DNA of 64,000 nucleotides from Flavobacteriales bacterium (GCA_035325445.1 DAOKZW010000002.1:5826-69825); one strand, 5' to 3'; counted from the first letter of the stretch, positions 8,017 through 54,627 are shown. Translations and numbers: made by a program. Notes: a model not told the origin generated them from the sequence alone.

Positions 8017-8028
8017 GCAAGGAGGATC

Positions 8029-37291: not shown

Positions 37292-37296
37292 CGGCG

Positions 37297-37851
37297 CTAC
37301 CTCCCCCTTGCCGGCGGCAGCTCCTCCTCCTTCGGGCCGTAATACAGTTTCCCGTCCTTCAGCCGCGCCGCGGCGGTGTACGGGTGCTCCTCCTCCTTGC
37401 CCAGGCCCATGATGTGATGCACCAGCCAGCCATCGGCCTTCAGCCGGTCGCTGATCATGGAACGATGGCAGCGCCACCACAGCACCTCGCTGCACATGAT
37501 GGCCGTGCGCCGTGCATCCGCCAGCTGCTTTAGTTCCGCCAAGCCCTCCTCAAAGGCCGGATCGTTCATCATGTAGTCGGCATAGCCGCGAAAGGCCGGA
37601 TGCCGCCACACCGTGTTCACGGAATCCTTCGCCTCGCGCCGCCTGCCGCCCAGCGACCGCAAATGGACGTACCCGATGCCCGCCCCGTCCAGCTCCCCCG
37701 GCAGCACCTCCTTGTTGAACTGCGGCTCGCGCCGCGACCCCGGATAGCTCCGCACGTCCACGAGCTGGGCGATATCAAAAGCCCGCAACCACGCCGCGAA
37801 TTCCGCGAAGGGATGGGTGGAGTGGCCGATTGTCCAGAGCTCGTGGGGCAT
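37297..37851 (-). CDS. DUF488 family protein
   Basis: MCSEVLWWRCHRSMIS motif and overall pattern typical of DUF488. Confidence 0.65.
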   Translation of the reverse strand: MPHELWTIGHSTHPFAEFAAWLRAFDIAQLVDVRSYPGSRREPQFNKEVLPGELDGAGIGYVHLRSLGGRRREAKDSVNTVWRHPAFRGYADYMMNDPAFEEGLAELKQLADARRTAIMCSEVLWWRCHRSMISDRLKADGWLVHHIMGLGKEEEHPYTAAARLKDGKLYYGPKEEELPPARGR

Positions 37852-37865
37852 GGTGCGAAGGTCGG

Positions 37866-38058
37866 GATTGGTTGGCAGGTGGCAGGTGGCAGTCCGCCTT
37901 CGCCCTTCGGGCTATGGCGGGACGAAGTTGGCAGGTGGCAGAGGGCAGGTGCAGTTGGCAGGTGCAGAGGGCAGGTGCAGTTGGCAGGTGGCAGAGGGCA
38001 GTTGCAGTTGGCAGGGTAGCGGAGTGCCCTAACAACTAACAACTGACAACTGACAACC
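37866..38058. repeat. complex intergenic repeat: TTGGCAGGTGGCAG copies, three ~27-bp units (TTGGCAGGTGGCAGAGGGCAGGTGCAG), then (CAACTRA) x4, forming an imperfect long inverted repeat
   Basis: Read directly in the 237-bp divergent region between the DUF488 gene and the ABC-F gene. Words GCAGTTGGCAG and ACAACTGACA recur at 51095-51165. Confidence 0.8.
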
Positions 38059-38088
38059 AGGAAATGGCCCCATACCTTCGCGACCCGC

Positions 38089-39957
38089 ATGAACTGCCTT
38101 TCCGTGGAGCGCATCAGCAAGCGCTATGGCCCCCGCCTGCTTTTCGAGAACATCTCCTTCGGGCTGGAGAAAGGCCAGAAAACGGCCATCGTGGCGCGCA
38201 ACGGCACCGGCAAGAGCACGCTGCTGAAGTGCATCGCCGGGGTGGAGAAGCCGGACGAGGGCATCATCACCTTCAACAAGGGCCTGCGCGTGGGCTACCT
38301 GGACCAGAACGTGGAGATGACCGCCACGCACTCGCTGGTGGACGAGATGCTGGACCGCGACGACCCGGTGTCGAACGCCATCCGCACCTACGAGCACTTG
38401 TCGGCCAAGGGAAGCCAAGGACCCGAACTGGAGGCCGCCATTGCGCGCATCACCGAGCTGGGCGCATGGGACCACGAGGCCCGCATCAAGCGGCTGCTGT
38501 TCCAGTTCGGCCTGCGCGACCTGGAGCAGCCCGTGAACACCCTCAGCGGCGGCCAGCAGAAGCGGGTGGCCATGGCCAAGGTGCTCATCGACATGCCCGA
38601 CGTGCTGATCCTGGACGAGCCCACCAACCACCTCGACCTGCACATGATCGAGCAGCTCGAGGAGGAACTGTCGGCACCGAACGTCACGCTCCTGCTGGTC
38701 ACCCACGACCGCTGGTTCCTGGACAACGTGTGCGACGAGATCATCGAGATGGAGTTCGGCTCCTTCACGCGATTCAAGGGCAACTACAGCTACTACGTGG
38801 AAAAGAAGGCCCTGCTGGAGGAAGTGCGCGATGCCACCCAGCAGCACCTGCGCGGACTGGCCCGCAAGGAATTGGAGTGGGTGCGAAAGATGCCCCGCGC
38901 ACGCGGCACCAAAAGCAAAAGCCGCCTGCAGGCCTACGACACGCTGAAGGACCTCGCCGGCCGCAGCTACGACCAGGAGCAGGTGAGCCTCGACATCAAA
39001 ACCACCCGCCTGGGCGGCAAGGTGATCGAGACGCGCAACCTTACCAAGAGCTTCGGCGACAAGAAGATCGTGGAGCACTTCAACTACTCCATCAAGGCCG
39101 GCGACCGCATCGGCGTGGTGGGGCCCAACGGCATCGGCAAGAGCACCTTCATCGACCTGCTCACACGCAAAACAGAGCCCGACGCCGGCAAGGTCACCAT
39201 CGGCGATACCGTGGTGCTCGGCATCTTCGGACAGCAGGGCCTGCAACTGAAGGATGACAAGCGCATCATCGAGGTGGTGCGCGACATCGCCGAGGCCATA
39301 CCACTCAGCAAGGGACGCACCCTCACCGCCGCGCAGCTTTTGGAGCGCTTCCTCTTCGACAAGGAACAGCAATACCAGTACGTGAGCACCCTCAGCGGTG
39401 GCGAGAAGCGCCGCCTCTACCTGTGCACCGTGCTGATGAAAAACCCCAACGTGCTGGTGCTGGACGAGCCCACCAACGACCTCGACATCGCCACGCTCAA
39501 CGCACTGGAGGACTTCCTCACGGACCTCGACATCTGCCTGCTCATCGTCAGCCACGACCGCTTCTTCATGGACAAGCTCTGCACCAAGCTGCTGGTGTTC
39601 GAGGGCGACGGCGTGATCAAGGAATGGGTACACACCTACACCGAGCTGCGCGAGTGGCAGAAGGAGCAGGAACGTGCGGCGAAAGAGGCGCGGGAGAAGG
39701 AGGCCAGGAAGGAGAAGGAAGTCAAGAAGGGCGCGCCGTCGGGCAAGCTCACCTACGCCGAACGCATAGAGCTGCGCAAGATCGACCAGCAGCTGCCCAA
39801 GCTGGAGCAAAAGAAAACCGAGCTGCTCGCCGAGATGGCCGAAAAGGCCGCCGACCACCACGCCGTGATGGAACTCTCGATCCAGCTGGAGAAGACGACT
39901 TCGGAGCTGGAGCGATTGGGGGATCGATGGCTGGAGCTGAGCGAGAAGGGAGAGTGA
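38089..39957 (+). CDS. ABC-F family ATPase (tandem ABC domains, no TM)
   Basis: Two nucleotide-binding domains: ARNGTGKSTLLK / LSGGQQKRVAMAKVL / LILDEPTNHLD and GPNGIGKSTFIDLL / LSGGEKRRLYLCTVL / LVLDEPTNDLD. Charged coiled-coil C-terminal extension. Confidence 0.9.
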   Translation: MNCLSVERISKRYGPRLLFENISFGLEKGQKTAIVARNGTGKSTLLKCIAGVEKPDEGIITFNKGLRVGYLDQNVEMTATHSLVDEMLDRDDPVSNAIRTYEHLSAKGSQGPELEAAIARITELGAWDHEARIKRLLFQFGLRDLEQPVNTLSGGQQKRVAMAKVLIDMPDVLILDEPTNHLDLHMIEQLEEELSAPNVTLLLVTHDRWFLDNVCDEIIEMEFGSFTRFKGNYSYYVEKKALLEEVRDATQQHLRGLARKELEWVRKMPRARGTKSKSRLQAYDTLKDLAGRSYDQEQVSLDIKTTRLGGKVIETRNLTKSFGDKKIVEHFNYSIKAGDRIGVVGPNGIGKSTFIDLLTRKTEPDAGKVTIGDTVVLGIFGQQGLQLKDDKRIIEVVRDIAEAIPLSKGRTLTAAQLLERFLFDKEQQYQYVSTLSGGEKRRLYLCTVLMKNPNVLVLDEPTNDLDIATLNALEDFLTDLDICLLIVSHDRFFMDKLCTKLLVFEGDGVIKEWVHTYTELREWQKEQERAAKEAREKEARKEKEVKKGAPSGKLTYAERIELRKIDQQLPKLEQKKTELLAEMAEKAADHHAVMELSIQLEKTTSELERLGDRWLELSEKGE

Positions 39958-40045
39958 AGGGATGTTCCCTGCCCACCGTTAGGTAGGCTCCATTCACCGT
40001 ATCGGTTGGTCGGCCCTGGAACTATGGGCTCCTCCCCTATGCGTT

Positions 40046-40318
40046 TCATTGTTCCCACTCCCCCAAATGCGCCCGCATCAGGCTCTTGAAGAGCTTGCCA
40101 TGGTTCGGGACGCGCAGGTGTAGCAGTTCATGCACGATCACATAGTCCTGGAACTTGAGGGGTTTATGCAGGAGTTCGCTATTGAAATTCAAGTGGCCTT
40201 TCGTGGAGCAGCTGGCCCACTTGTGGCGCATAGGGCGGATGCCCAGCCACACCACCTCCACACCGATCTTCTCCGACCAGTCACGGACGCGTTGCTTGAA
40301 GGCGGCCTTGGCGTCCAT
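40046..40318 (-). CDS. YgjP-like metal-dependent hydrolase (DUF45), unusually short (90 aa)
   Basis: HEXXH motif in YVIVHELLHLRVPNHG preceded by WASCSTKGHLNFNSELL, the conserved C-terminal half of DUF45. ATG shares one nucleotide with the hsdR stop at 40318. Missing about 100 N-terminal residues relative to typical family members. Confidence 0.6.
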   Translation of the reverse strand: MDAKAAFKQRVRDWSEKIGVEVVWLGIRPMRHKWASCSTKGHLNFNSELLHKPLKFQDYVIVHELLHLRVPNHGKLFKSLMRAHLGEWEQ

Positions 40319-43300
40319 CAGATGCGGTCTGCTTTCTCCAGCAACGTGAATAACTCATCCACCAGCCGCGCCACCAGTATTTCGTCGTCCACCTGGCCGT
40401 AAATGGCGAAGGTGACCTTGGAGCGCAGCTCGCGCAGTTCTTTCTCACTGGTCTTCCAGTGCGGGAAGGCCACGAAGGCGTCCTTGATCTTGCGGCTCAC
40501 CGTCTCGCTTTCGGGCACCTGGGCATCCAGCAGGGTGCGGTACACGAAGTAGGTAAGCCCATCGAAGCCCTTCTCGGCCTGCTCCCGTTTGCGGTCCTCA
40601 TTTTGTTGCACGAGGCGTAGCAGATCATCCAGCGCCTCTTTCGTATCGGACTGGCGGCTTTCGAAGCTCTCCTGCACCGCCTTGGCGCGTTCGGCCATGG
40701 CGATCAGGAAGGGGTCGTCGCTTTCGGACTCGGCCTTCTTCTCGATGCTCTTGACCAAGTTGATCACCTTGGTACCGTCACCCGCATTCTTCTGCTTGAT
40801 CAGCTCGATGGTGCGCTCGTTGATCTCCACCAGCTCCAGCGGCGCGTTCACGTTGTAGGTGCCCACGTGTTCCTGCACCAGGCTGTTCGTCTTGCGCTGG
40901 AACTCCCGGTCCACCTCCACACGCTTGGTGTAGGCCTTGCGCACCACGTCGTAGATGGCGCTCAGCGTGGCATAGGGCTCGATGTAGGGGCGCAGGAAGG
41001 CATCGGGGCTGATGATCTCATACAGCATCTCCACTTCCTTGTACGCCTTGAAGAACTCCTTGCGGCGTTCCGGGTCGCGGAAGTGCTCGATCAGCGTGTC
41101 CACGTCGCGGTCGTCGAAGCGGCCGCCCACCAGCGCCAGGTAGGCGGGTACCTTCTGCTCCATCTTGTTCTTGAACAGACCCTTCAGCAGGGCGATGTCC
41201 TTCACGATGGCATTGACCTCGTCACTATCAAAGGCCAGCGCTTTCTCCAACTTGTCGAAGATGCCCACGAAGTCCAGCACGAAGCCGTGGGGCTTCACCA
41301 TCTCGGCCTGCTCGTTCTCATACGGACGGTTCACCCGGGCGATGGCCTGCAGCAGTGTGTGGTCGCGCATGGGCTTGTCCAGGTACATGGCGTAAAGCAG
41401 CGGCGCATCGTAGCCGGTGAGCAGCTTCTCGGTGACGATGAGGATCTTGGGCTGCTGGTCCAGTTTGGTGAAGGCCTTGCGGATCTGCCGCTCCTTCTTC
41501 TCGTCCAGGTGGAATTCCTTCAGCGCGGCGCTGTCGTTGTTGTTGCCGGTGTACACTACGGCGCTGTACTCGGGCGGCAGGTACTTGTCCAGCGCGTGCT
41601 TGTACAGGGCGCAGGCCTCGCGGTCCACGCCTACGAGGAAGGCCTTGTAGCCGAGCGGCTCCACGTTCTCGGTGTAGTGCTTCGCCACGAACTCGGCCAC
41701 CTTGGGGATGCGCTCCCTGCCCTTCAGGAAGTTCTTCAGGTTCACGGCGCGGTCCAGCACCTTGTTCAGGTGCTCGATGTCCGCCAGGCCCTCGGCCTCG
41801 GCCAGCGAGAGGAACTCCTTGTCCAGCGTTTCGTGCGGCACCAGCAGCTCGTTCGGCGCCAGGTTGTAGTACAGCGGCAATGTGGTGCCGTCGCTGATGC
41901 TGTCGGCGATGCTGTACTTGTGCAGGTAGCCTTTGTCGTCCTCCCCGCCGAAGGTCTTGAAGGTGCCACGTCCGTAGGCGGTCTTGTCGATGGGTGTGCC
42001 GGTGAAGCCGATGTAACTCGCGTTCGGCAATCCGGCCATGAGGAAGTTGCCCAGGTCGCCGCCGGTGGTGCGGTGCGCCTCGTCGATCAGCACGTAGATG
42101 TTCTTCCGCGTGTTGATGTTTGCCGGCATGTCGCGGAACTTGTGCACCATGCACACGATGATGCCGCGGTAGTCGTCCTTCAGCAGCTTGTTCAGCCGGG
42201 CGATGCTCTCGGCGTGCTCGATGTTGCCCAGGCCCAGCGCCGCGAGGTTCTTCAGCATCTGGTCCTCCAGCTCGTTGCGGTCGATCATCAGCAGCACCGT
42301 GGGCTTGTCCGCCTCGGGGGCCTTGAAGAGCAGCTCGGCGGCCTTGATCATGGTGAAGGTCTTGCCGCTGCCCTGCGTGTGCCACACCAGCCCGCGCCGC
42401 CGTTGCGGGTCCAGCGCGCGGTGCACCACGCGCTCCACGGCCGTGGTCTGGTGCTGGCGCAGGATGTACTTGTTCAGCTCCTCATCCTTCTCGGCGAAGA
42501 CAATGAAGTCCTTCAGCAGGGCCAGCACCTGGGGGATGGCGCAGAAGCTTTTCACCTTGGCCTCCAGTCGGCCGGGGGTGTAGGATGGCGGACCTCCTGG
42601 TCCGCCCGAGATCCCGGTGCTATGCGGCGGACCGGGAGGTCCGCCTTCCGTCAATGCGTCCTTCTCGTAGAGCAGGTACTCACCCTCCTTCAGCCCGCTC
42701 TTCACCGGATTGTTGCGGATGTAATCACACACCTGCTCAAAGTGGTCCTCGTTGCGGATCAGCCGGTCCCAGTACTCGTCCATCCAAAGCGAACCGGTCT
42801 TACCCAGGCGCTTATTCACTTCACGTGCGCTGAAGCCCTTCCATGACTTCACGATCTCACCGATCGTGTGGCCGTTCAGCGGGCGGAACAGCACATGCAC
42901 GTGGTTCGGCATCACCACGTAGCTCACGACTTCATAGCGGTCGCCGTCGAAGTGAAGGATCGCATCACCAACAATGCGGGCCAACTCCGGCTTCCGGAAG
43001 GGGCACGAGCCTTTGCCGGCGTCCAGCCACTTGTCCATGCGGCGGCTGAAGCGGTCGAAATGCTCCAGTTCGATGGCTTCGGTCCACGGTTCGGGGTGTT
43101 CGCGCAACCACGCATCGCGCTCGGCTTTCCATTCATCCAAAACTTCACGTGGAAGAGAGTCGCCCATGCGCCACGTCACGGAGCAGTACACGCCGGGTTG
43201 GTGCCAATGCGGTACACGGTGCTCTTTCGGGTTGACGGAGGAGTACGGGTCGAAGAAGGGGCTTTCCGGGATGGCGGACATTCCTGGGACGGCGGACATT

Positions 43301-44091
43301 CCTGTCCGCCCAGTGCTCCGTGGCGGACTGGAAAGTCCGCCTTCCTCCCCCCGTAGGATTTTCCACTCGAAGATGTTGCGGTACACCGTATTCCAGGTCA
43401 CCCCGTACTTGAAGCCGATGGCATCGGTGGCGGTGAAGAGCTGCTGGGGCACCATTACCTCGGGCGTTTCGCGGTGGTAGCGCCGGATCTGGTCGATGCC
43501 CAGGGCGATGCCCTCGTCCTTGGTGGCGTTCTTGCACTCCACCACCAGCACGGGGATGCCGTTGATGAGGAAGACCACATCCTGCCGCGTGCTGTGGTGG
43601 CCGTTGTGCGTTACCCACTCCTCGGTGACCTCGTAGATATTCCTGTCGGATGGCGGACTTTCTTGTCCGCCCGAGACTCCGGCCACACCCGTGCTCACGC
43701 GCGGACTGGAAAGTCCGCGTTCCAAGACCGCACCGTAATCGATGAGCACCAGGTCGCGCTCGCGGTCCTCTTCGTGGTCGAAGAACTTGCCTTGGTTGCG
43801 CAGGTACTGGAGGAACTCGCGGTTGCCGTAGATGTCCGTGTGCAGGTGGCGCAAGCGGCCCGGCAGGGCACCGGGAGCCTCGGTGTAGCGCGGGTTGAAG
43901 CGCCGCACCTGCGCATCCAGCACCTCTTCGAAATAGAGGCTGGCACCCCTGGCCCGTTCACTGCCCGTAGCGGCGGCGTTGAAACCCCGGCGCCGCTCGG
44001 CGGTTTCGCGCGGCACCACGGCCCAGCCCACCTCCTTGGCGTAGGCCAGGATGCGCGCTTGAACGGTCTTGTGTTCGCCGGGGGTGGGCAT
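40318..44091 (-). CDS. hsdR: type I restriction enzyme R subunit (HsdR) carrying three in-frame REP insertions and an in-frame RayT-like transposase domain
   Basis: N-terminal PD-(D/E)xK nuclease (DVVFLINGIPVLVVECK), helicase motif I HTQGSGKTFTM, DEAH-type LIDEAHR, motif VI region, C-terminal helical domain. The 1257-aa ORF is continuous. About 290 extra residues (aa 251-510) plus a 25-aa insert at aa 126-150 are not HsdR-like. Confidence 0.85.
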   Translation of the reverse strand: MPTPGEHKTVQARILAYAKEVGWAVVPRETAERRRGFNAAATGSERARGASLYFEEVLDAQVRRFNPRYTEAPGALPGRLRHLHTDIYGNREFLQYLRNQGKFFDHEEDRERDLVLIDYGAVLERGLSSPRVSTGVAGVSGGQESPPSDRNIYEVTEEWVTHNGHHSTRQDVVFLINGIPVLVVECKNATKDEGIALGIDQIRRYHRETPEVMVPQQLFTATDAIGFKYGVTWNTVYRNIFEWKILRGEEGGLSSPPRSTGRTGMSAVPGMSAIPESPFFDPYSSVNPKEHRVPHWHQPGVYCSVTWRMGDSLPREVLDEWKAERDAWLREHPEPWTEAIELEHFDRFSRRMDKWLDAGKGSCPFRKPELARIVGDAILHFDGDRYEVVSYVVMPNHVHVLFRPLNGHTIGEIVKSWKGFSAREVNKRLGKTGSLWMDEYWDRLIRNEDHFEQVCDYIRNNPVKSGLKEGEYLLYEKDALTEGGPPGPPHSTGISGGPGGPPSYTPGRLEAKVKSFCAIPQVLALLKDFIVFAEKDEELNKYILRQHQTTAVERVVHRALDPQRRRGLVWHTQGSGKTFTMIKAAELLFKAPEADKPTVLLMIDRNELEDQMLKNLAALGLGNIEHAESIARLNKLLKDDYRGIIVCMVHKFRDMPANINTRKNIYVLIDEAHRTTGGDLGNFLMAGLPNASYIGFTGTPIDKTAYGRGTFKTFGGEDDKGYLHKYSIADSISDGTTLPLYYNLAPNELLVPHETLDKEFLSLAEAEGLADIEHLNKVLDRAVNLKNFLKGRERIPKVAEFVAKHYTENVEPLGYKAFLVGVDREACALYKHALDKYLPPEYSAVVYTGNNNDSAALKEFHLDEKKERQIRKAFTKLDQQPKILIVTEKLLTGYDAPLLYAMYLDKPMRDHTLLQAIARVNRPYENEQAEMVKPHGFVLDFVGIFDKLEKALAFDSDEVNAIVKDIALLKGLFKNKMEQKVPAYLALVGGRFDDRDVDTLIEHFRDPERRKEFFKAYKEVEMLYEIISPDAFLRPYIEPYATLSAIYDVVRKAYTKRVEVDREFQRKTNSLVQEHVGTYNVNAPLELVEINERTIELIKQKNAGDGTKVINLVKSIEKKAESESDDPFLIAMAERAKAVQESFESRQSDTKEALDDLLRLVQQNEDRKREQAEKGFDGLTYFVYRTLLDAQVPESETVSRKIKDAFVAFPHWKTSEKELRELRSKVTFAIYGQVDDEILVARLVDELFTLLEKADRI
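42587..42645. repeat. REP-like palindromic doublet (inside hsdR, in-frame)
   Basis: GGCGGACCTCCTGGTCCGCC ... GGCGGACCGGGAGGTCCGCC: two perfect 8-bp-stem hairpins 19 nt apart. Confidence 0.75.
42646..43260 (-). mobile_element. RayT / IS200-like Y1 HUH tyrosine transposase domain, in-frame inside hsdR, flanked by REP doublets
   Basis: Residues about 278-482 of the hsdR ORF. HUH motif VVMPNHVHVLF and catalytic-Tyr helix FEQVCDYIRNNPVKSGL. No homology to HsdR. Confidence 0.6.
43273..43341. repeat. REP-like palindromic element (inside hsdR, in-frame)
   Basis: GGCGGACATTCCTGGGAC GGCGGACATTCCTGTCCGCC cagtgctccgt GGCGGACTGGAAAGTCCGCC. Translates as SSPPRSTGRTGMSAVPGMSAIPESP. Confidence 0.75.
43652..43718. 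repeat. REP-like palindromic doublet (inside hsdR nuclease domain, in-frame)
   Basis: GGCGGACTTTCTTGTCCGCC ... GCGGACTGGAAAGTCCGC. Translates as LSSPRVSTGVAGVSGGQESPPSDR. Confidence 0.7.
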
Positions 44092-44094
44092 GGT

Positions 44095-46029
44095 TTATAC
44101 TGTCGGCCAATCTTCAGGTACCAGCTTAAGACCACCGCGCCAACGTTCGCGTATAGTGTCCTGGTACCAATTCTCCTGGAACTCGGCGTGCTCCGTCATG
44201 ATAACTTGAAGCCCCGGTGCCACTTCCTGAACAAGGTCATAGATCAGCTTGAACATCCTTTTCAAGTCCTCCCTATCATCGCCTTTTAGCTCAACCACGT
44301 TGTCTCTTGAAACATCTGGTGGGAAGTACACCTGTGAAGGCTGGTCCAGAAAAAGGAAATGAGGAACAGGACGACGTTGCATTGTAAACCACTTGTGAAG
44401 GGCAAGGTGGCCTATTAAATGATAACCTACCCAGTTCTCACCACTGCCCATCTTGTCCATTGTAATCGCTCCATTGGAAGTTGCCGCAAACACCGTGAGT
44501 TTGTTCACATTTAGGCGTAAGGGATACTTTGAATGTTCGAGCTCCAACCTCTTCGCCCAGATGGACATGTCTTCCGCCAGGATGGAGACGATTGATTCAA
44601 GCCGCTCCTTGATGTCCTCGTCCGACAACTTCTCCTCAAACTCTGCAACTTCAAGCTGCAGGAGCTTCGATTGTCTTTCCAGGTCTAGTGTATTGGGTAA
44701 GTCGGGCAAACTTTCCAAGTACAGACTGATGCGACCAAGGATCAGAGCCCGGAGCGATACATCGTCGCGTAATTGCTTGAGCTTCTCATCAGCCTGAACA
44801 ACCGCGGCCATCGACTCTCGATTCTTACGCAAACTCTCATTCAAGCCGCTAATCTTCGATTGAGTCTCTGCGATAGACTTCTCTACCTGAGGTAGGTTAC
44901 GTTGTACTCTATTCAGTTGGTCAGCCACCTTAGAAATGGAGTCAGTGATGCTCGTGGCGATGGGCAGGTTAGACGTATCCGCCAAACCTTGCTCACACAA
45001 CGGACAGACGTGCGCTTCACCCTGGCTCAATAACCCTATGCTCACCAGCCTTGCCTTCTGTTCCTTAGCCTCTGAAGTGAATCCTACTTCAGCATCCGCA
45101 ATTGATTGAATCGCCGAAAGTTGTGCTTGGAGGTGGCCTCGCTCCGCCAAGAGTCTCTCGCGTTCAGATGCTAGCTTCTCGTACTCGCCGGCATCCGTGC
45201 CCTTGGCGTCTAGCACCGACACACTGGCCTGGCTTGCTTTATGCAGATGTGCAACGAGTTCGTTCCAGTCAGAAGTATCCGGGGCTTGGCTCAAGCCAGC
45301 CTCCCGAGCTTGCGCTAGCAGCGAAGCGGCTTTGCCGATTCCTTCGCCGCGAATTGACCGTAGCTCGTTCAGCTTCCTCTCAATCGAGCGGAGTTCACCC
45401 TTTAACATTCGAAGCCGCTCTTGATTTGCGACATAATCATCGCTCACTGCGCCTAAAAAGAAGGGCAGTGTATCCTTGAGGGCTTGTGCCTTGAAGGAGT
45501 CGTTCGCCTTGTAGAAGAGCTGCTCCGGTTGATTGATCACATACTGTGGTTGAAAACACAGCATTAAAGCGTGGCGCACGGTAGCGGCAACAGGCAATCG
45601 TGTGTGGCCCGCATCAGGAACGTGAATATTCTCCTTTACACCAGTCCATCCTGTCACTATTGAGATTAGGCCCTCCTTGTTTGTATTCGAGATTAGGTCT
45701 TCGAACGCCGGGATAGCGATCTCTCGGCCAATTGCAACGTAACACTCCTCCGAGTAGTCTCCGTCCACCCGCGGCGCTTTGCGGGCAATGAAGGCTTCCC
45801 CGTCATCTAGCTTGAGCCGCAAACCGAACCATGAAACGGCGGAGCGAATAATACCATAAGGCACCTTGCATTTGCCACTACCCATGCAGAAGTCAACAAT
45901 TGATATCAGTGCTGACTTGCCAGTCTTTGAGGCGCCCGTTATGACGTTTACCTCGCCAGGAGTGAATGGGAGCTTACGAACTCGTCCATCATGCGAGTAA
46001 AGCACCAAGTCGTGTATTTGAATGCTCAT
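44095..46029 (-). CDS. SMC/Rad50-like ABC ATPase with coiled coil and CxxC zinc hook (DUF3732-like; candidate ABC-3C ATPase)
   Basis: Walker A VITGASKTGKSAL at N-terminus. About 300-aa heptad-rich middle with CPLCEQ hook. C-terminal signature-like MGSGENW, Walker B/D-loop HFLFLDQPSQ, H-loop IMTEHA. Start set at the Met of MSIQIHDL (CAT 46027-46029), overlapping the upstream stop by 4 nt. Confidence 0.7.
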   Translation of the reverse strand: MSIQIHDLVLYSHDGRVRKLPFTPGEVNVITGASKTGKSALISIVDFCMGSGKCKVPYGIIRSAVSWFGLRLKLDDGEAFIARKAPRVDGDYSEECYVAIGREIAIPAFEDLISNTNKEGLISIVTGWTGVKENIHVPDAGHTRLPVAATVRHALMLCFQPQYVINQPEQLFYKANDSFKAQALKDTLPFFLGAVSDDYVANQERLRMLKGELRSIERKLNELRSIRGEGIGKAASLLAQAREAGLSQAPDTSDWNELVAHLHKASQASVSVLDAKGTDAGEYEKLASERERLLAERGHLQAQLSAIQSIADAEVGFTSEAKEQKARLVSIGLLSQGEAHVCPLCEQGLADTSNLPIATSITDSISKVADQLNRVQRNLPQVEKSIAETQSKISGLNESLRKNRESMAAVVQADEKLKQLRDDVSLRALILGRISLYLESLPDLPNTLDLERQSKLLQLEVAEFEEKLSDEDIKERLESIVSILAEDMSIWAKRLELEHSKYPLRLNVNKLTVFAATSNGAITMDKMGSGENWVGYHLIGHLALHKWFTMQRRPVPHFLFLDQPSQVYFPPDVSRDNVVELKGDDREDLKRMFKLIYDLVQEVAPGLQVIMTEHAEFQENWYQDTIRERWRGGLKLVPEDWPTV

Positions 46030-46538
46030 GGTCTCATCCCCAGAAGGGCATATGTTGTTTCTACTGCACCGGCTCGCATGAGCCACCGACCAAGGAACTC
46101 CGCCTTCTTCATACACTCAGCCACCTCATCGGACATATCGCCACTGGCTCGATTGAACACCACCCTATACTTCGCGTTGGGCACAATCACCTCACCTTCG
46201 ATTTGAAATAGACCACTGTTCGATCCGTAGAGGAGCGCTTCCTTCGCGTAAGGAACCAGCTGCAGAGTTCTGAAGGGCAATCCTGCAACCAGCAATGGGT
46301 TGCTCTCTACCCAGGTCGGTATGGATGATCTTACGTTGGTTGGAAGCGACTCTCGCGTCTTCTGATGCAAGATTAGTGGGAGCAAGAGAAAGGCCTCCAA
46401 GTAGTGCAATGCGGTACGTTTTCCCTTAGGATTCTTAAGCGCATCCGTCGCCGCATGCCAGATGATGAAGGCACAGAACCCAGGGTTGAGCAGGAACCGC
46501 TCTTCATGAGGCCGTTGATTCCAAGGCTGCAACGGCAT
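46026..46538 (-). CDS. small hypothetical protein; candidate middle component of a tripartite ABC-3C-like module
   Basis: 170 aa, no recognisable motif. Wedged between the upstream stop (2-nt gap) and the downstream ATPase start (4-nt overlap). Confidence 0.45.
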   Translation of the reverse strand: MPLQPWNQRPHEERFLLNPGFCAFIIWHAATDALKNPKGKRTALHYLEAFLLLPLILHQKTRESLPTNVRSSIPTWVESNPLLVAGLPFRTLQLVPYAKEALLYGSNSGLFQIEGEVIVPNAKYRVVFNRASGDMSDEVAECMKKAEFLGRWLMRAGAVETTYALLGMRP

Positions 46539-46540
46539 AG

Positions 46541-47740
46541 TCAGCTAAGGATTGAAGCCAAGCGGTCCTTGAACTCTGGATGCCAACCGATCCTCATGTC
46601 GTTCGCCAAAATGTGCAATGAGCCACGGGTAATGAACCCATCATGCACGCCGGGTCTTATCCGAGAGTTTTGATTGCCCTGTTCCGCCCATGCCAGCAGA
46701 TCGCTAGCCGCACGCTTCTTCACTTCTTCAGTGGCGCCTGTACCCAGGGTGTCCTCCATCTGGTGGAATACAGCCTCCCATTCCTCAATCAAGGCCCGCT
46801 CATATACGGTAAGGTCGGCTACAAAGAGCAGGTCTTGGCGCAGCCACCTTGAACGCTGTTCAAAGGCTCTGAAATAGTCACGTATTGCTGCACGCAAACG
46901 CTTTGAATGAGAAGTTGCAAGTTCAACTTGCTTAACAAAGGGCAAGCTCTTGTGCGCCTCCGCGGTATCCGTATCAAGTTCAAAGTTCAGCAGGTCATCA
47001 GCAACAGGCAATGAGTCCTGGCGGAATCGATCGCGAACTTCAGTCACCTGCGCTTCAATTTCCTCGGACAGTATTCTACTACTTAACGAAGTGTCCAAGA
47101 GTTGCTGGATAACACGCCTAAACCACCAGCCTTCCAGATACTCAACGAACGTTTCACGATTGTTCTTCCCTGCAGCATAGTGCACTTCTGCCGCAAGAAG
47201 AGAATTGACGCCTTCGATGTCAGGCGCTTGGTCAATGACAAGTACTCGCTCAAGTAGCTCACGGCACTGGCTTGGTTTCCATGCCTTATAGGCGGCGTAT
47301 GCGCTCTCGTTCGTCGCGCTCTCCGAAGTTTGAGCCACGGCCAAAAGTCCCTTCATCGCGCCCTCAACATCTCTGTCTTTCGTTTTCAGCTTTCCTGCAA
47401 TAGAAGCGGCCTGTGCTGTCTCAGAGGTCACGAGGAAGAGCATCGTGTCCTTAGCTAGCTTTCCAGCATTAGTTAGCTCAATCCAAATACGCAGCGTTTT
47501 CCAAAGATCACTGGAGCTGTTCATAAGATTTCCCTTACGGTTCAAATGATGCTTGGTCTGTAGCAGATCCGTTGGCGTGCCAAGCTTCTCGAAAGCAACG
47601 TCATCGAGTGTCTCCACTGAGACACTGAATATTTCGCTGTTCTTCAACCGCTGAAGGCTCCACAACAGTGCACACCGAACCTGGTATAGGTAGCCCAATG
47701 CAGATTCTGCGGCTGAGAATTGCGCTGTTGTATCGGTCAT
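46541..47740 (-). CDS. hypothetical protein; candidate effector with N-terminal restriction-endonuclease-like (Cap4/DUF4297-type) region
   Basis: N-terminus ESALGYLYQVRCALLWSL ... VSVETLDDVAFEK ... LLQTKHH resembles the G-Y-x-Y-Q start and D / (E,Q)xK pattern of PD-(D/E)xK-type Cap4 nuclease domains. ATG overlaps the hsdS stop (ATGA). Confidence 0.45.
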   Translation of the reverse strand: MTDTTAQFSAAESALGYLYQVRCALLWSLQRLKNSEIFSVSVETLDDVAFEKLGTPTDLLQTKHHLNRKGNLMNSSSDLWKTLRIWIELTNAGKLAKDTMLFLVTSETAQAASIAGKLKTKDRDVEGAMKGLLAVAQTSESATNESAYAAYKAWKPSQCRELLERVLVIDQAPDIEGVNSLLAAEVHYAAGKNNRETFVEYLEGWWFRRVIQQLLDTSLSSRILSEEIEAQVTEVRDRFRQDSLPVADDLLNFELDTDTAEAHKSLPFVKQVELATSHSKRLRAAIRDYFRAFEQRSRWLRQDLLFVADLTVYERALIEEWEAVFHQMEDTLGTGATEEVKKRAASDLLAWAEQGNQNSRIRPGVHDGFITRGSLHILANDMRIGWHPEFKDRLASILS

Positions 47741-49017
47741 GCTCGTACTGATGTGTAGTACGTGACTTCTTTAGGAACCCTCACCTTCCCCGTCATCAGC
47801 TCATGAAGCAGGGTGCGGAAGAGGTCTTGGAGTGACGTGAGTTTCGTTCGGTGGTGTTCGCCCTTGCGTTCAATCGCAAGCAAAGCATCTGTGATGCCAT
47901 TCTGCACATCAAGCCCAGGAAGTGGTAGTGGCATACTCCTCACATCGGCCACATTGAGATGGGCTACCGTGAGGCCACTGGCGATCGACTTCATGTGCTT
48001 GCTCAGTACCGGACTGTAGAAGCTGTAGACGAGGAACTCTGGACTAAGCCTAGATCGGTCTGTGCGTATCAGCATGGTTCGTTGCCCCAAGCTGAGTCGC
48101 ATGCCTTCCGGAATGACGCATGCTTCACCTACCGGAGCCTCGCGACTGAACAGAACATCACCTGGTTCGGGCACGGCGCGCCGAACACGATCACGATACT
48201 GCTCCTCGCTCGTGAAGAAGGCTGGTTCCGGCACGAAACGACCATCGCGGATGTTGAAGTTCCGGGCGACGCGTACCCCAGTGGTCAGGAACTTCGGCGT
48301 GGTATGCGGGCAATCGATGACCAGTTCACACACTGACTGCAAAGGCACCACCTCCCAACTCTCCGGCACCAACCCGATCTCGGTCTCCTTCTGGGCTTCG
48401 CCGCGCAGCCCTTCGGTGAAGAGCTTTTGCATCAGGGCCTGCTTCAGCTCGGTGGTGGTGCGGATCAGGCGCTCCTGCTGTTCGATGGCCGATTGCACCG
48501 TGCTGAGCACTTGGGCGATGCGCTGCTGTTCGGCAAGCGGTGGCAGTGGGAGTTCAGACCCGAACACGTCGGATTCACGCACCGCCGGATATCCTGCGCC
48601 ACGTTCCAATCCTGCCATACGTGCTATGAAGCCATCCGTAAGGAGGAATGAGTAGAGGTACCGGGGATCAACCTTGCTCCGGTCGCTCCGAAGCACGCAA
48701 TAGCCTGTGCTAGCGATCTGGCCATCCAGCTTCTCCGGTACTAGCGCCACACGCCTAAGCGTAGGACGGACAGTTGCGAAGAGCACATCGTCCCGGCGTA
48801 TCTCTTTCCGCGCACGGCTCGGCGCATCTTTCCCTACTAGAGAAGCTGACTCTGTGATCTTGAACGATTCATTGGATACGCTGGAAACATCCACATACGC
48901 GAAGCGCTCATGAGGTGCTTTGCGCGGGTCCCGTTGCTTCGCCTTGAGCACTAGGTTCCCGATGCGCTCGCGGCGCCAACCTTGGGGCAAGTCGTATGGA
49001 AGTTCATCCTCCATCAT
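47737..49017 (-). CDS. hsdS: type I restriction-modification specificity subunit HsdS
   Basis: Two target-recognition domains separated by the conserved central helix LPPLAEQQRIAQVL and the C-terminal helix LQDLFRTLLHELMTGKVRV. Start overlaps the hsdM stop (ATGA). Confidence 0.85.
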   Translation of the reverse strand: MMEDELPYDLPQGWRRERIGNLVLKAKQRDPRKAPHERFAYVDVSSVSNESFKITESASLVGKDAPSRARKEIRRDDVLFATVRPTLRRVALVPEKLDGQIASTGYCVLRSDRSKVDPRYLYSFLLTDGFIARMAGLERGAGYPAVRESDVFGSELPLPPLAEQQRIAQVLSTVQSAIEQQERLIRTTTELKQALMQKLFTEGLRGEAQKETEIGLVPESWEVVPLQSVCELVIDCPHTTPKFLTTGVRVARNFNIRDGRFVPEPAFFTSEEQYRDRVRRAVPEPGDVLFSREAPVGEACVIPEGMRLSLGQRTMLIRTDRSRLSPEFLVYSFYSPVLSKHMKSIASGLTVAHLNVADVRSMPLPLPGLDVQNGITDALLAIERKGEHHRTKLTSLQDLFRTLLHELMTGKVRVPKEVTYYTSVRA

Positions 49018-51041
49018 GCCAACTGCTTCAAGATCTTCTTCAGCGCCGCATCCGTTTCCCGCGCCTCGGCCTCAATGGCCTCCAGTTCCTGCACCAGCTC
49101 GGGGATGGGCCGGTAGCTGGTGGCCTCGCCGGTGTGGATGTAGCGGCTGGGCGAGAGGTTGTAGTCGCTCAGTTCGGCCAGTGGCACAATGCGGCTGAGC
49201 TTCTCCTCCTCCTTCCACCCGAGCATCACGTCCGCAATGCGGTCAATGTGCTCGGGCGCCAGGAAGTTCTTGGGCTTGCCCTTCTCGAAGAGCTGGCCGG
49301 CGTTCACCAGCAGCACCTTGCCCTGGCGGGCTGCCGGCTTGGCCCTGCGCAGGAAGAGCACGATGCCCGGCGCGGTGGTGTTGTAGAAGAGGTTGTCCGG
49401 CAGGTAGAGCACGCTCTCCACCAGGTCGTTATCCACGAACCACTTGCGTACCTCGCGCTCCTTGCTGTGGCCATCGTTGCCGCTGCCGCGGCTGGCGGCG
49501 CCGGTATCCAGCACCACGGCGGCGCGGCCGGTCGGCTTCAGGCTAGAGAAGATGTGCTGCGCCCAGCCCCAGTCCGCACTGGCCTTTCCGGGGAAGCCCG
49601 CGCCGGTGGGGAAGCGGTCCAGCTCGTCGTTGGCGTAATCGGCCTCGGTGAACCAATCCTGGTTCCACATGGGGTTGGCCACCACGCGGTCGAAGGTCTT
49701 CAGCCGCCCACGCTCGCGGAACTTGGGGTTCTTGAAGGTGTCGCCGATCTCGATCTGGCCCTGCATGTCATGGATGATCATGTTCATGTTGGCCATGGCC
49801 CAGGTCTCGGCGATGTATTCCTGGCCGTAGAGGCGGAGGGGCGCGTACTTCGGCATGGCAGGCATTCCTGGGCCGGCGGACATTCCTGGGCCGGCGGACA
49901 TTCCTGGGTCGGCGGACATTCCTGTCCGCCCGGTACCGTGTGGCGGACTGAAAAGTCCGCCTACCGAATATGTGGTGCCGCCATCCTTCATGCGCGCCTC
50001 CAATGCGATCTCGCATTTGATCAGCAGGCCGCCGCTGCCGCAGCAGGGGTCGTACACCTCCATGCCGGGCTCGCATTCCAGCACGCGGGCCATCACCTCG
50101 CCCACTTCGCCGGGGGTGTAGAACTCGCCCGCGCTCTGCCCGCCGCCCTCGGCGAACTTGCGGATGAGGTACTCGTAGCTCTTGCCGATGATGTCGGCCT
50201 CCACATCGTTGAGGCCAAGGCGCTTGGTGCTGATGGCCTCGATGAGGTTGCTGAGGCGGTCGTCGGCCAGGTCGCGCTGGCCGTGGGTAGTGGCGTTGAA
50301 GTCCACGCGGTCGATGATGCCCTGCAGCAGCGGGTTGGCCTTGGCCACTTCGCGCAGGTGGGTGGTGAGCTGCTCGCCGATCTTGTCGCTGAGGGTGCGG
50401 ACCACGCTCCACACGGGCTGCTCGGGGTCGGCGGGTTCCAGCGGCAGGTAGAAGCGCACGAGCTTCCTATCGGCTTTTACCAGCCGGAAGGCCTTGGCGC
50501 GGGATCCCACCTCGGCGGCGATGCGGTCCAGCTCATCATCGAACACGTCGCACAGCCGCTTGGTGAAGATGAGCGGCAGGATGTAGTCCTTGTATTTGGG
50601 GGCATCCTTGGCGCCCCGGATGGAGCAGGCGGCATCCCAGATCCAGGTCTCGAGGGATTTGTCGGGGGTGGGCTTGGCAGCCTTCTTCGGGCGGCCGGTC
50701 TTGGTTTTTTCGGCGGGGTCGGGGTCGGTCTTCGCGGACCGGGAGGTCCGCGGGCTCGGTTTGTGGGCGACTTCCTTATCCCCGTCCTGCGCGGACCGGG
50801 AGGTCCGCGGACCGGAGGCTTCCTTTTCCGCGGTCTGCGAGGACCGCGGACCGAGTTTGATGCTGCCGCCTCGCCCGCGCCCGAGGGCGATGGCGCCTTC
50901 GGCGAGGAGCTCGGCTTTTAAGCTTTCGTAGGTGGGCTCGTCCACATCCAGCAGCTCGCGGGCCTTTCCATTACCCAAGCTGGGCGTTTCAGCCAGTAGG
51001 GCGAGCAGGGCTTCCTTGCGGTTGGTATTCTCTTCGGTCAT
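49014..51041 (-). CDS. hsdM: type I restriction-modification N6-adenine DNA methyltransferase HsdM carrying two in-frame REP insertions
   Basis: Motif I VYDPCCGSGGLLIK, FYTPGEVGEVMARVL, motif IV variant VVANPMWNQ, C-terminal HsdM helical region. Continuous 675-aa ORF. Inserts are GGLFSPPHGTGRTGMSADPGMSAGPGMSAGPGMPAMP and the N-terminal region EKEASGPRTSRSAQ ... SPRTSRSAKTDPDP. Confidence 0.85.
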   Translation of the reverse strand: MTEENTNRKEALLALLAETPSLGNGKARELLDVDEPTYESLKAELLAEGAIALGRGRGGSIKLGPRSSQTAEKEASGPRTSRSAQDGDKEVAHKPSPRTSRSAKTDPDPAEKTKTGRPKKAAKPTPDKSLETWIWDAACSIRGAKDAPKYKDYILPLIFTKRLCDVFDDELDRIAAEVGSRAKAFRLVKADRKLVRFYLPLEPADPEQPVWSVVRTLSDKIGEQLTTHLREVAKANPLLQGIIDRVDFNATTHGQRDLADDRLSNLIEAISTKRLGLNDVEADIIGKSYEYLIRKFAEGGGQSAGEFYTPGEVGEVMARVLECEPGMEVYDPCCGSGGLLIKCEIALEARMKDGGTTYSVGGLFSPPHGTGRTGMSADPGMSAGPGMSAGPGMPAMPKYAPLRLYGQEYIAETWAMANMNMIIHDMQGQIEIGDTFKNPKFRERGRLKTFDRVVANPMWNQDWFTEADYANDELDRFPTGAGFPGKASADWGWAQHIFSSLKPTGRAAVVLDTGAASRGSGNDGHSKEREVRKWFVDNDLVESVLYLPDNLFYNTTAPGIVLFLRRAKPAARQGKVLLVNAGQLFEKGKPKNFLAPEHIDRIADVMLGWKEEEKLSRIVPLAELSDYNLSPSRYIHTGEATSYRPIPELVQELEAIEAEARETDAALKKILKQLA
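49855..49961. repeat. REP-like element (inside hsdM, in-frame): 3.5 x 18-bp GGCGGACATTCCTGGGCC units plus two hairpins
   Basis: ggcggacattcctgggcc x3, GGCGGACATTCCTGTCCGCC, GGCGGACTGAAAAGTCCGCC. Same family as the hsdR copies. Confidence 0.8.
50734..50846. repeat. REP-like triple hairpin (inside hsdM 5' region, in-frame)
   Basis: GCGGACCGGGAGGTCCGC at 50734-50751 and 50791-50808, GCGGTCTGCGAGGACCGC at 50829-50846. Confidence 0.7.
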
Positions 51042-51235
51042 TCAGCCGATGAAAATAGGGGAATCGGGGTAAACGTGCGGAGTTCGGAGGCAGTTGGCAG
51101 CGGGCAATCGTCGGGGCCCGCAAACCACAAACCAACCTTCTCGCCGAACACAACTGACAGCCCTGCCTGATCAAAGATCGCTTCGGCCGCAAGGCCGGCC
51201 TCGCGATGACGTGCCGCAGGCGCGAGGGAGTGCCG

Positions 51236-51280
51236 CCCTACGAACTACGCCCTACGAACTACGAACTCCGAACCCCGAAC
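51236..51280. repeat. short tandem repeat (CCCTACGAACTACG / CGAACTMCG units) upstream of the hsdM operon
   Basis: ccctacgaactacg ccctacgaactacgaactccgaaccccgaac read directly. Lies between the rluD stop (51288) and the hsdM start (51041). Confidence 0.6.
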
Positions 51281-51287
51281 TAAAAAC

Positions 51288-52352
51288 CTACTCCTCCTCC
51301 AACGGCCTCGCATTCGTGTACACCCGCCAGCGTTCCAGCACGGCTTGCATGTCGGCGGGGAGCGGGCTTTCGAATTTCATGCGCTTGCCCGTGGCCGGGT
51401 GGTCGATCTCCAATAGGTACGCGTGCAGGGCCTGCCGGGGCAGCAGCTCGAAGCAGTTCTCCACGAAGCGCTTGTATTTGGTGAAGACCGTGCCCTTGAG
51501 CACGCGGTCGCCGCCGTAGTGGGCATCGTTGAAAAGCGGATGGCTGATGTGCCTCATGTGCGCCCGGATCTGGTGGGTGCGGCCGGTCTCCAGCTTGCAC
51601 TCCACCAAGGTGACGTAGGTGAAGCGCTCCAGCACTTTCCAGTGGGTGATGGCGGGTTTCCCCTGTTCGGGGTCCTGGGGCACGGCCATCACGGTGCGGT
51701 CCTTGGGCGAGCGGTCCAGGTTGCCCTCAATGGTGCCCGCATCCTCCTCAAAGTCACCCCAGACCAGGGCCTGGTAGCGGCGGTCGTTGCTGCGCACGTA
51801 GAATTGATGCGCCAAGTGGGCGAGCGCATCGTCGGTCTTGCCGATCACCATCACGCCACTGGTATCCTTGTCCAGGCGGTGCACCAGTCCGGGGCGCGGC
51901 ACGGGCTGGTTGGGCGCGGACGGCAGCTTGCCGAAGTGGTAGAGCAGGGCGTTGACGAGCGTGCCCGTCCAGTTGCCATGGCCGGGGTGCACCACAAGCC
52001 CGGGCTGCTTGTTGATCACCAGGATCTGGTCGTCCTCGTACAGCACTTCCAGCGGGATGTCCTCCGGAATGAGCTCTACTTCGCGCACGGGCTGGGGCAG
52101 CACCACGGTGACCACGTCGCGGGGCTTCACCTTGTAGCTGGGCTTCTCGGGCTTGTCGTTGACGAGCACGTTGCTGTTGCGGATGGCTGCGGCCACGCGT
52201 GTGCGCGAGGCACCGGCCATGCGCTCCGCCAGGAATTTGTCCAGGCGCATGAGTCCTTGGCCGGGGTCGGCCACGATGCGGTGGTGCTCGTAGAGTTCCT
52301 CGCCGGCCTCAGAAACCTCGTCCACCGGTTGTTCGTTCTTGTTGCTCATCAC
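51288..52352 (-). CDS. rluD: 23S rRNA pseudouridine synthase, RluA/RluD family
   Basis: S4-like N-terminal domain (RLDKFLAERM) and catalytic motif HRLDKDTSGVMVIGK with conserved Asp. Confidence 0.85.
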   Translation of the reverse strand: MMSNKNEQPVDEVSEAGEELYEHHRIVADPGQGLMRLDKFLAERMAGASRTRVAAAIRNSNVLVNDKPEKPSYKVKPRDVVTVVLPQPVREVELIPEDIPLEVLYEDDQILVINKQPGLVVHPGHGNWTGTLVNALLYHFGKLPSAPNQPVPRPGLVHRLDKDTSGVMVIGKTDDALAHLAHQFYVRSNDRRYQALVWGDFEEDAGTIEGNLDRSPKDRTVMAVPQDPEQGKPAITHWKVLERFTYVTLVECKLETGRTHQIRAHMRHISHPLFNDAHYGGDRVLKGTVFTKYKRFVENCFELLPRQALHAYLLEIDHPATGKRMKFESPLPADMQAVLERWRVYTNARPLEEE

Positions 52353-54613: not shown

Positions 54614-54627
54614 GCTCCTTTTCTGCT

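Follow-up and report, generated by a model that had tools for sequence, protein, structure and literature searches.

In classical type Ic restriction-modification (RM) loci, such as EcoprrI, the slot between hsdS and hsdR is the site of the anticodon-nuclease genes (PrrC, RloC). In a stretch of 64,000 nt from a Flavobacteriales bacterium (GCA_035325445.1 DAOKZW010000002.1:5826-69825; hereafter, the window), the same slot of a type I RM operon is occupied by three genes centred on a Rad50/SMC-like ATPase. The locus raises the question of what this three-gene cassette is, and whether it acts with the RM system that encloses it or beside it. Judged from its predicted products, the cassette is a complete short (type II) Lamassu system of the ABC-three component (ABC-3C) class, belonging to the Cap4-CTD7-MC3 sub-family and arranged in the order lmuA-lmuC-lmuB. 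We consider it likely that the locus comprises two defence systems, both autonomous and intact, one of which is nested within the transcription unit of the other. A preliminary description of the window had proposed a type I RM operon with a second immunity module centred on an ATPase of the Rad50/SMC-like type, and the Pfam and PADLOC matches reported below agree with that proposal. It had also taken the tripartite combination to be uncharacterised, a view that did not hold, since the structures of Lamassu systems of this sub-family have been solved and their mechanism has been published.

Identification of the embedded cassette as Lamassu

The ABC-3C class was reportedly defined in a paper by Krishnan et al. 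in 2020. All three cassette proteins were recognized by both Pfam and PADLOC models: LmuA by Pfam CTD7 (2.1e-39) and PADLOC LmuA PDLC03848 (2.6e-62), LmuC by Pfam MC3 (1.3e-40) and PADLOC LmuC (8.8e-11), and LmuB by Pfam DUF3732 (8.8e-51) and PADLOC LmuB (2.1e-135). The search for known defence systems suggested in the preliminary description was thus answered by PADLOC for each of the three genes. Among the Pfam families that it had named as candidates, DUF3732, MC3 and CTD7 were all recovered, whereas Cap4_nuclease gave no direct match to LmuA.

The cassette was then compared with the cryo-EM Lamassu complexes 9hqu/9hqx and 9ny5/9nxx/9uxh. LmuB aligned over its full length with the chains 9hqu_A (2.4e-63) and 9ny5_D (2.9e-59), and LmuC aligned with the PDB chains 9uxl_D and 9ny5_C at approximately 1e-6 over residues 3-155 of 170. 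LmuA matched the Vibrio cholerae protein (VcLmuA, or DdmA; 9nxx_A) over its full length, at 2.5e-13 alone and at 2.5e-32 with a profile of 28 orthologues; the same profile matched the LmuA of Salmonella (SalEnt LmuA, 9hqu) at 2.8e-29, also over the full length. In these alignments, K63 corresponds to the catalytic K57 of VcLmuA, a correspondence made explicit by the K57A mutant chain 9ny1, and the residues E43, D46, D47, Q61 and K63 were invariant among the 28 orthologues. LmuA appears to consist of an N-terminal Cap4-type PD-(D/E)xK nuclease and a C-terminal CTD7 domain for oligomerisation or docking. The Cap4 of the cyclic oligonucleotide-based signalling system CBASS was not reached even by the orthologue profile, and the Cap4 assignment was made because LmuA is homologous to VcLmuA and SalEnt LmuA.

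LmuB is an SMC/Rad50-like ABC ATPase with a coiled coil and a DUF3732 C-terminal half, and is the putative sensor. Its sequence retains the Walker A motif G32ASKTGKS, a zinc hook C342PLC, the signature S529GE and a deviant Walker B motif, LFLDQ, at residue 559; an E-to-Q variant of the Walker B motif of LmuB has been described in the Lamassu literature. The longest open reading frame (ORF) for this ATPase, 44095-46116, begins with GTG and encodes 673 aa, while the ATG at 46029 gives 644 aa followed by a stop codon. The latter start is supported by the PADLOC LmuB models, whose alignments to the 673-aa ORF begin at residue 30.

V. cholerae DdmABC (equivalent to LmuACB) and Salmonella LmuACB are the systems for which cryo-EM structures and a mechanism were reported in 2025. 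In these homologues, LmuA is an inactive monomer sequestered in an LmuA1-LmuB2-LmuC1 complex, and DNA ends are sensed by the complex, to which they bind and which they activate. The freed LmuA tetramerises via its C-terminal domain, and two Cap4 domains then form the DNA-degrading active site, leading to abortive infection. Both systems are included in the 'Lamassu Cap4-CTD7-MC3 sub-family' as defined by Li et al. (2025). Because the domain set of the window cassette is exactly that of this sub-family, we regard the cassette as a known and mechanistically characterised system.

The type I RM frame

The genes on both sides of the cassette encode the complete component set of a type I RM system, namely an HsdM of the gamma class of N6-adenine methyltransferases, an HsdS with two target-recognition domains, and an HsdR with a PD-(D/E)xK nuclease and a superfamily 2 (SF2) motor. 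HsdM matched Pfam N6_Mtase (6.7e-82) and HsdM_N (5.9e-18) and PADLOC MTase_I (9.3e-163), and the N6_Mtase match is split by an in-frame, repeat-derived loop. Its motif I (DPCCGSG) and motif IV (NPMW) are kept across the lineage. HsdS matched Pfam Methylase_S in two stretches and PADLOC Specificity_I at 1.3e-58. HsdR matched Pfam HSDR_N, SWI2_SNF2, ResIII, T1R_D3-like and Y1_Tnp as well as PADLOC REase_I (1.5e-84), with the motifs D171...E185-C-K187, GSGKT574, DEAH670, TGTP697 and QAIARVNR915 all intact. The RM frame is an intact type I RM system, for which both methylation and restriction activity are predicted. Including the short gene at the end of the operon, all seven proteins of the locus have intact ORFs and complete catalytic motifs.

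HsdM also has an N-terminal extension of approximately 125 aa that is partly of low complexity, gave no Pfam match and holds two hairpin-derived 'PRTSRSA' segments. This extension is conserved in three related RM loci (L083, L084 and L089) and absent from the HsdM of two others (L001 and L087). Secondary matches of HsdM and HsdS to the mad2 and mad5 models gave the frame a certain likeness to the methylation-associated defence system (MADS). Assignment to MADS was rejected: HsdM scored 9.3e-163 with MTase_I versus 1.4e-30 with mad2, the window gave no match to mad3 or mad8, and HsdR has the canonical features of a type I R subunit.

The last gene, called DUF45 in the preliminary description, encodes a YgjP-like metallopeptidase that keeps the HELLH motif at residue 63. 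The family assignment stood, with the reservation that the protein is a short form, whose Pfam YgjP-like match (1.7e-28) is confined to the C-terminal half of the profile (112-198 of 207). In the related loci L081-L089, hsdR is likewise followed by a short form (95-121 aa), which is the usual tail gene of this lineage; the protein of locus L002 is a full version of 234 aa.

Gene organization and transcription signals

The ORF map, made over positions 36000-55000 of the window, reproduced the order and coordinates of the seven minus-strand genes given in the preliminary description (Table 1). They are arranged head-to-tail with overlaps or gaps of 4 nt or less throughout, and all six junctions were as described, some being read in the sequence and others derived from the ORF ends. 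Proteins of the window are deposited as HMN04308-HMN04311, from a metagenome-assembled genome.

Table 1. Positions of the genes, gene junctions and other features of the RM/Lamassu locus, counted from the first nucleotide of the window
Feature	Position	Strand	Size	Remark
hsdM	49014-51041	-	675 aa
hsdS	47737-49017	-	426 aa
lmuA	46541-47740	-	399 aa
lmuC	46026-46538	-	170 aa
lmuB	44095-46029	-	644 aa
hsdR	40318-44091	-	1257 aa
YgjP-like (DUF45) gene	40046-40318	-	90 aa
hsdM/hsdS junction	49014-49017			ATGA overlap
hsdS/lmuA junction	47737-47740			ATGA overlap
lmuA/lmuC junction	46539-46540		2 nt	gap
lmuC/lmuB junction	46026-46029			ATGA overlap
lmuB/hsdR junction	44092-44094		3 nt	TAA, then gap
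hsdR/YgjP-like gene junction	40318		1 nt	overlap
rluD-hsdM intergenic gap	51042-51287		246 nt	only non-coding stretch of the locus; presumed promoter region
HsdM N-terminal extension	50667-51041	-	~125 aa	residues 1-125; partly low-complexity
RAYT-like HUH/Y1 domain in hsdR	42652-43260	-		HsdR residues 278-480; core of insert
REPIN-like element	43263-43345	-		hsdR, 5' flank of RAYT-like domain
REPIN-like element	42579-42649			hsdR, 3' flank of RAYT-like domain
REPIN-like element	43641-43723			hsdR, inside HSDR_N
REPIN-like elements	49847-49967, 50726-50812			hsdM

This tight spacing makes translational coupling and a single transcript plausible. The preliminary description had stated that the genes are translationally coupled and that the module is co-transcribed with the RM genes; the spacing was confirmed, while coupling and co-transcription are deduced from it rather than observed. 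Its further statement that no internal promoter gap exists is correct in that no non-coding gap lies inside the unit, but the promoter scans reached only chance level. Between 39000 and 52500, four sigma-70 promoter-like sites were found versus 3.5 expected, and 12 intrinsic-terminator-like sites versus 11.6 expected, so that neither scan was informative. The Bacteroidota -7 box TAnnTTTG did not occur in the interval 40-51.3 kb, which is likewise uninformative, since this motif is rarer than chance across the whole window. As the sole intergenic gap of the locus, the rluD-hsdM interval is by elimination the presumed promoter of the seven-gene unit, and no consensus promoter was detected in it by the sigma-70 or -7 box scan. 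Short tandem 'AGTTCGTAG(G)' repeats are present at 51230-51290 inside this gap, the only candidate promoter region. A hairpin with a 7-bp stem, CGTACTA-CACAT-CAGTACG on the operon strand, is located at 47744-47762 directly before the hsdS/lmuA ATGA overlap and falls within the cargo-specific tail of approximately 15 nt of hsdS; it could be a chance occurrence, a coupling element or a recombination scar.

The locus is flanked by housekeeping genes, with an ABC-F ATPase, a DUF488 gene, SCO1 and others on one side, and an RluD-type pseudouridine synthase, a protein sorted by the type IX secretion system and Ddl on the opposite side. Neither an integrase nor a transposase flanks the locus, and a tRNA scan for integration sites near it found none. 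Elsewhere in the window, and unrelated to the RM/Lamassu locus, a hybrid polyketide synthase/non-ribosomal peptide synthetase pair was observed on the plus strand at 1504-11973. Its first protein (2170 aa) contains AMP-binding, PCP, KS, AT, PCP and aminotransferase domains, and its second protein (1314 aa) contains C, A, PCP and TE domains.

Lamassu relatives inside and outside RM operons

To place the cassette among its relatives, 80 species-representative loci with LmuB relatives of 35-56% identity were examined. The order lmuA-lmuC-lmuB was kept in all 79 loci that cover the region upstream of lmuB. Where at least 4 kb was available on both sides, only two of the 45 loci were embedded between hsdS and hsdR. 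One, from Opitutales (L001), belongs to the same RM lineage as the window (HsdR 70% identical); the other, from Sulfuriferula (L002), lies in a different type I family (HsdM 31%). A partial third case was found (L067), and in four further loci (L026, L066, L070 and L071) RM or methyltransferase genes adjoin the Lamassu genes without being interleaved with them. Relatives also stand alone on an element resembling an integrative and conjugative element. Relatives were also detected on 81 plasmids, where they are already named 'ABC-three component system' proteins by the annotation pipeline PGAP, and the three inspected for RM neighbours were all stand-alone.

Among the closest relatives the picture is different. 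The two nearest cassettes, with LmuB 98% and 90% identical to that of the window, are flanked by the same hsdS and hsdR, and a type I RM operon encloses each of the nearest relatives, with LmuB identities of 56%, 51%, 90% and 98%. In the gene-neighbourhood survey called for by the preliminary description, most Lamassu relatives stood alone, and members of the clade of this cassette were found repeatedly in this RM lineage.

Interchangeable cargo in the hsdS-hsdR slot

HsdR homologues are abundant, and we examined the genomic contexts of eight of them, with HsdR 72-92% identical to that of the window. Six other cargos were found at the hsdS-hsdR position. The syntenic locus L083 (HsdR 84%) carries a different Lamassu, with LmuC PDLC03869 and LmuB PDLC03862, and the likewise syntenic L081 (HsdR 89%) carries a PDC-S06 ATPase, as do L087 and L088 (HsdR 72%; PDC-S06). 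A CBASS cyclase and phospholipase occupy the slot in L084 (HsdR 82%), an OLD-TOPRIM ATPase with a UvrD helicase (Gabija-like) in L089 (HsdR 92%), a HerA ATPase in L082 (HsdR 85%) and a KwaA fragment in L086 (HsdR 80%). The sibling locus L083 is the most direct comparison: the window and L083 share RluD, HsdM, HsdR and ABC-F at 83%, 75%, 84% and 84% identity, respectively, and the same junction geometry, in which the overlaps are of 4 nt and hsdR is preceded by a gap of 3 nt; a tblastn comparison of the L083 Lamassu with the window cassette detected no similarity.

As the cargo is interchangeable and the homology breaks at gene boundaries, the hsdS-hsdR slot is a generic hotspot for defence cargo, of the kind described by Payne et al. 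(2024). The preliminary description had suggested that the module might guard or back up the RM system. A guarding role like that of PrrC found no support, given that unrelated cargos occupy the slot, that RM-embedded loci are only two of 45, and that Lamassu homologues work alone.

Two further observations concern the cargo of this RM lineage. A gene of approximately 261-268 aa lies directly upstream of hsdR in L001 (12126-12911), L087 (9182-9988), L088 (4451-5257) and L089 (9178-9984), and has no counterpart in the window. The L001 copy matched nothing in Pfam and the L087 copy nothing in PADLOC, and the other copies carry no precomputed Pfam domains; this gene could be an RM accessory that has escaped recognition, or another defence gene embedded in the operon. 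In addition, a RhuM-family gene lies between hsdM and hsdS in L001 (5819-6835) and L087 (4399-5409). The hsdM-hsdS junction is a second cargo slot of the RM lineage, and is empty in the window.

Base composition, junctions and origin of the cassette

The base composition of the cassette differs from that of its surroundings. Precisely at the hsdR/lmuB junction, the GC content drops from approximately 0.65 to 0.48; it recovers within the 3' part of hsdS, giving sharp steps at 44.1 kb and at 47.7-48.2 kb. The GC content at third codon positions was 0.54-0.60 for lmuA, lmuC and lmuB and 0.64 for hsdS, compared with 0.87 for both hsdM and hsdR and with 0.89-0.91 for genes of the host. On the basis of this foreign composition, the cassette, probably together with part of hsdS, is a recent acquisition that has not yet been ameliorated, whereas the resident RM operon is older.

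Junction alignments located the borders of the variable cargo. The DNA homology of the RM frame starts exactly at the ATG of hsdR and stops approximately 15 nt before the stop codon of hsdS, and the junction flanks are near-identical over 55-100 nt. The 3' part of hsdS is lower in GC, and its final 15 nt or so form a variable, cargo-specific segment. The cassette likely arrived through homologous recombination between RM alleles, with the conserved 3' terminus of hsdS and 5' terminus of hsdR as anchors, and part of hsdS was probably imported along with it.

RAYT-like domain and REPIN-like elements in the hsd genes

HsdR contains an in-frame insert of approximately 270 aa between its nuclease and motor domains. 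The core of this insert is an HUH/Y1 domain resembling REP-associated tyrosine transposases (RAYT), which scored 5.5e-22 with NCBIfam REP_Tyr_transpos (78.2 bits, with a cutoff of 80), compared with 2.3e-6 with IS200, and 8.1e-10 with Pfam Y1_Tnp. Among 18 diverse HsdR homologues, the HUH motif NHVHVLF was invariant and the Tyr motif DYIRNNP nearly so, and PF01797 was present in well over half of 120 HsdR homologue clusters, among the matches listed. Sister HsdR proteins of approximately 973 aa are without the insert and are 80-95% identical over the C-terminal 60%. A literature search for a RAYT domain in HsdR found no description of one.

The RAYT-like domain is bordered on both sides by REPIN-like elements, and further copies are located inside HSDR_N and in hsdM (Table 1). 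These elements correspond to the repeat families D1, D4, D6 and D10 and the inverted pairs I2-I5; they are built of hairpin pairs, lie in frame and are translated as low-complexity loops. All ten GCGGAC-N6-GTCCGC units of the window are within hsdR or hsdM, where 0.59 would be expected. As single-stranded DNA, the elements fold with -23 to -27 kcal/mol, with z values of -4.0 to -6.7 for four of them and -2.6 for the one at 50726-50812. Their copy number and position vary between loci that are 89-98% identical, L090 being without the HSDR_N copy, and the hsd genes of L081-L086 contain these hairpins as well. The RAYT-like domain and the in-frame palindromes are arguably more unusual than the nesting of Lamassu. 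Lamassu/DdmABC is known to be triggered by hairpin-forming palindromes of approximately 79 nt on plasmids, and the presence of REPIN-like palindromes adjoining a Lamassu cassette is noted here as a curiosity.

Proposed mode of action and alternative explanations

The RM frame is resident in the Flavobacteriales chromosome between rluD and the ABC-F gene, with Lamassu located at the hsdS-hsdR junction. We propose that transcription of all seven genes starts in the interval preceding hsdM and that the genes are translationally coupled; expression of hsdR would then require read-through of the cassette. The RM system would provide a first line of defence, in which self DNA is methylated and unmodified invader DNA is cut, while Lamassu would form an independent second line, acting like its solved homologues. 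An LmuA1-LmuB2-LmuC1 complex would keep monomeric LmuA sequestered until LmuB/LmuC bind DNA ends or replication- or hairpin-associated structures. The freed LmuA would then form a tetramer via CTD7, and its Cap4-type nuclease would degrade DNA and abort the infection. In this arrangement, nesting would serve co-inheritance and co-regulation and not physical coupling.

Several points weigh against two autonomous nested systems. The organism is uncultured, and the single transcript, like activity of the two systems, is a prediction. Promoters of high-GC Flavobacteriales are poorly modelled, and an internal promoter may be present. The Cap4 domain of LmuA, assigned by homology, has no direct Pfam match. 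In addition, L001, L002 and the relatives at 90-98% identity are all RM-embedded, and the clade could be adapted to residence in RM operons rather than being a neutral passenger. This last point, together with the exact cargo boundaries, is the reason why functional nesting is kept in consideration. Cleavage by the RM system or stalled translocation of HsdR would then trigger Lamassu, or the Hsd proteins would restrain it, and the locus would be one two-stage immune device, with the hsdS 3' and hsdR 5' ends serving as a docking platform for the swapping of second-stage modules. We regard such a device as rather unlikely. Its feed-forward form, in which LmuB/LmuC sense the double-strand ends made by HsdR and Lamassu serves as an amplifier or as a fail-safe when restriction fails to clear the invader, draws on the finding that DNA ends bind to and activate Lamassu homologues, on the fixed stoichiometric order of genes taken as co-transcribed, and on the type I RM setting of all the nearest relatives. 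However, the slot also holds cargos with unrelated triggers (CBASS, HerA, the Gabija-like pair and PDC-S06), most Lamassu of the family have no RM neighbour, and the killing of a cell at each successful restriction would be costly; we judge feed-forward activation to be unlikely. A guard of the PrrC type, in which the Hsd complex holds Lamassu inactive until phage anti-restriction proteins disable the RM system and release it, is very unlikely, even though the cassette shares the position of prrC in the EcoprrI locus and PrrC was reported to be embedded almost exclusively in type I RM loci (Payne et al.). The PADLOC models of PrrC and RloC matched none of the three cassette proteins, the solved Lamassu complexes are inhibited internally, with LmuB2-LmuC sequestering LmuA without the need for any other partner, VcDdmABC and SalEnt LmuACB defend autonomously in E. 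coli, and the cargo of the slot is interchangeable.

The remaining explanations deny that both systems are active or that the ATPase belongs to defence. One of the two systems might be an inactive relic, for example if the insertion had uncoupled hsdR expression, or if the repeat and RAYT insertions had crippled HsdR or HsdM. The several in-frame insertions in hsdR and hsdM and the half-length YgjP-like gene would fit such decay, but none of the seven ORFs is disrupted and their catalytic motifs are complete, the same architecture is found in the relatives at 90-98% identity, and dozens of HsdR lineages at 65-89% identity have kept both the insertions and the short form of YgjP, which implies that they are under selection. 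A relic is, in our estimation, most unlikely. As for a housekeeping role, the ATPase shows weak coiled-coil and ABC similarity to the Rad50, RecN and SMC models and could in principle be an ordinary SbcC/RecN/Rad50 repair protein beside RM genes. This identity was rejected, as the scores were far below the cutoffs (recN, 16.5 bits versus 407.85; Rad50, 18.7 versus 1000) and the partners of the ATPase are LmuA and LmuC, in the order A-C-B in all 79 loci, and not SbcD. With the DUF3732 C-terminus and the deviant Walker B motif, the chance of a repair protein is negligible, and the refuting case named in the preliminary description, an ordinary SbcC/RecN repair protein, does not apply. Compared with these alternatives, two autonomous, nested systems are the explanation that we favour.

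Comparison with known systems

The cassette shares with V. cholerae DdmABC and Salmonella LmuACB the gene order, a Cap4-type LmuA with the catalytic Lys and CTD7, an MC3-type LmuC, and an LmuB with DUF3732 and the D-Q Walker B motif. The identity to the solved proteins is modest, at the level of remote homology. The V. cholerae LmuB clade was reported to be without a zinc hook, whereas LmuB of the window retains the CxxC hook. The systems that have been studied form operons of their own on genomic islands, in contrast to the window cassette, which is nested in a type I RM operon without a promoter region of its own. With PrrC and RloC, the cassette shares the slot between hsdS and hsdR, but it is without an anticodon-nuclease domain and is predicted to consist of three proteins with a DNA nuclease as effector and inhibition by its own subunits.

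Payne et al. (2024) described defence systems embedded in type I RM loci in the same orientation as a general phenomenon, and PrrC as almost exclusively located there; TgvAB, in the type I RM of V. cholerae VPI-2, is an experimentally dissected example of an embedded system. The window locus resembles these cases and BrxU in BREX in that the genes of one multi-gene system enclose a complete module of another in the same orientation, with tight spacing and variable cargo. It differs in that the cargo is Lamassu, that the boundaries are exactly the hsdR ATG and the last 15 nt or so of hsdS, and that a syntenic sibling carries a different Lamassu. We found no explicit description of Lamassu inside type I RM in the literature, and the supplementary tables of Payne et al., searched for Lamassu, Lmu, MC3 and CTD7, gave no usable entries, as the authors had removed complete known systems.

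The locus is an instance of a known nesting phenomenon that combines two known systems, and not a new kind of system; if cross-talk between the two is absent, it is an ordinary one. It adds one well-documented case to the picture of defence within defence. Type I enzymes produce DNA ends, which are what Lamassu senses, and the pairing is therefore well suited to the question of cross-talk. Together with its siblings, which carry six other cargos within base-exact boundaries, the window forms a natural series in which to study how cassettes are exchanged and whether nesting gives synergy.

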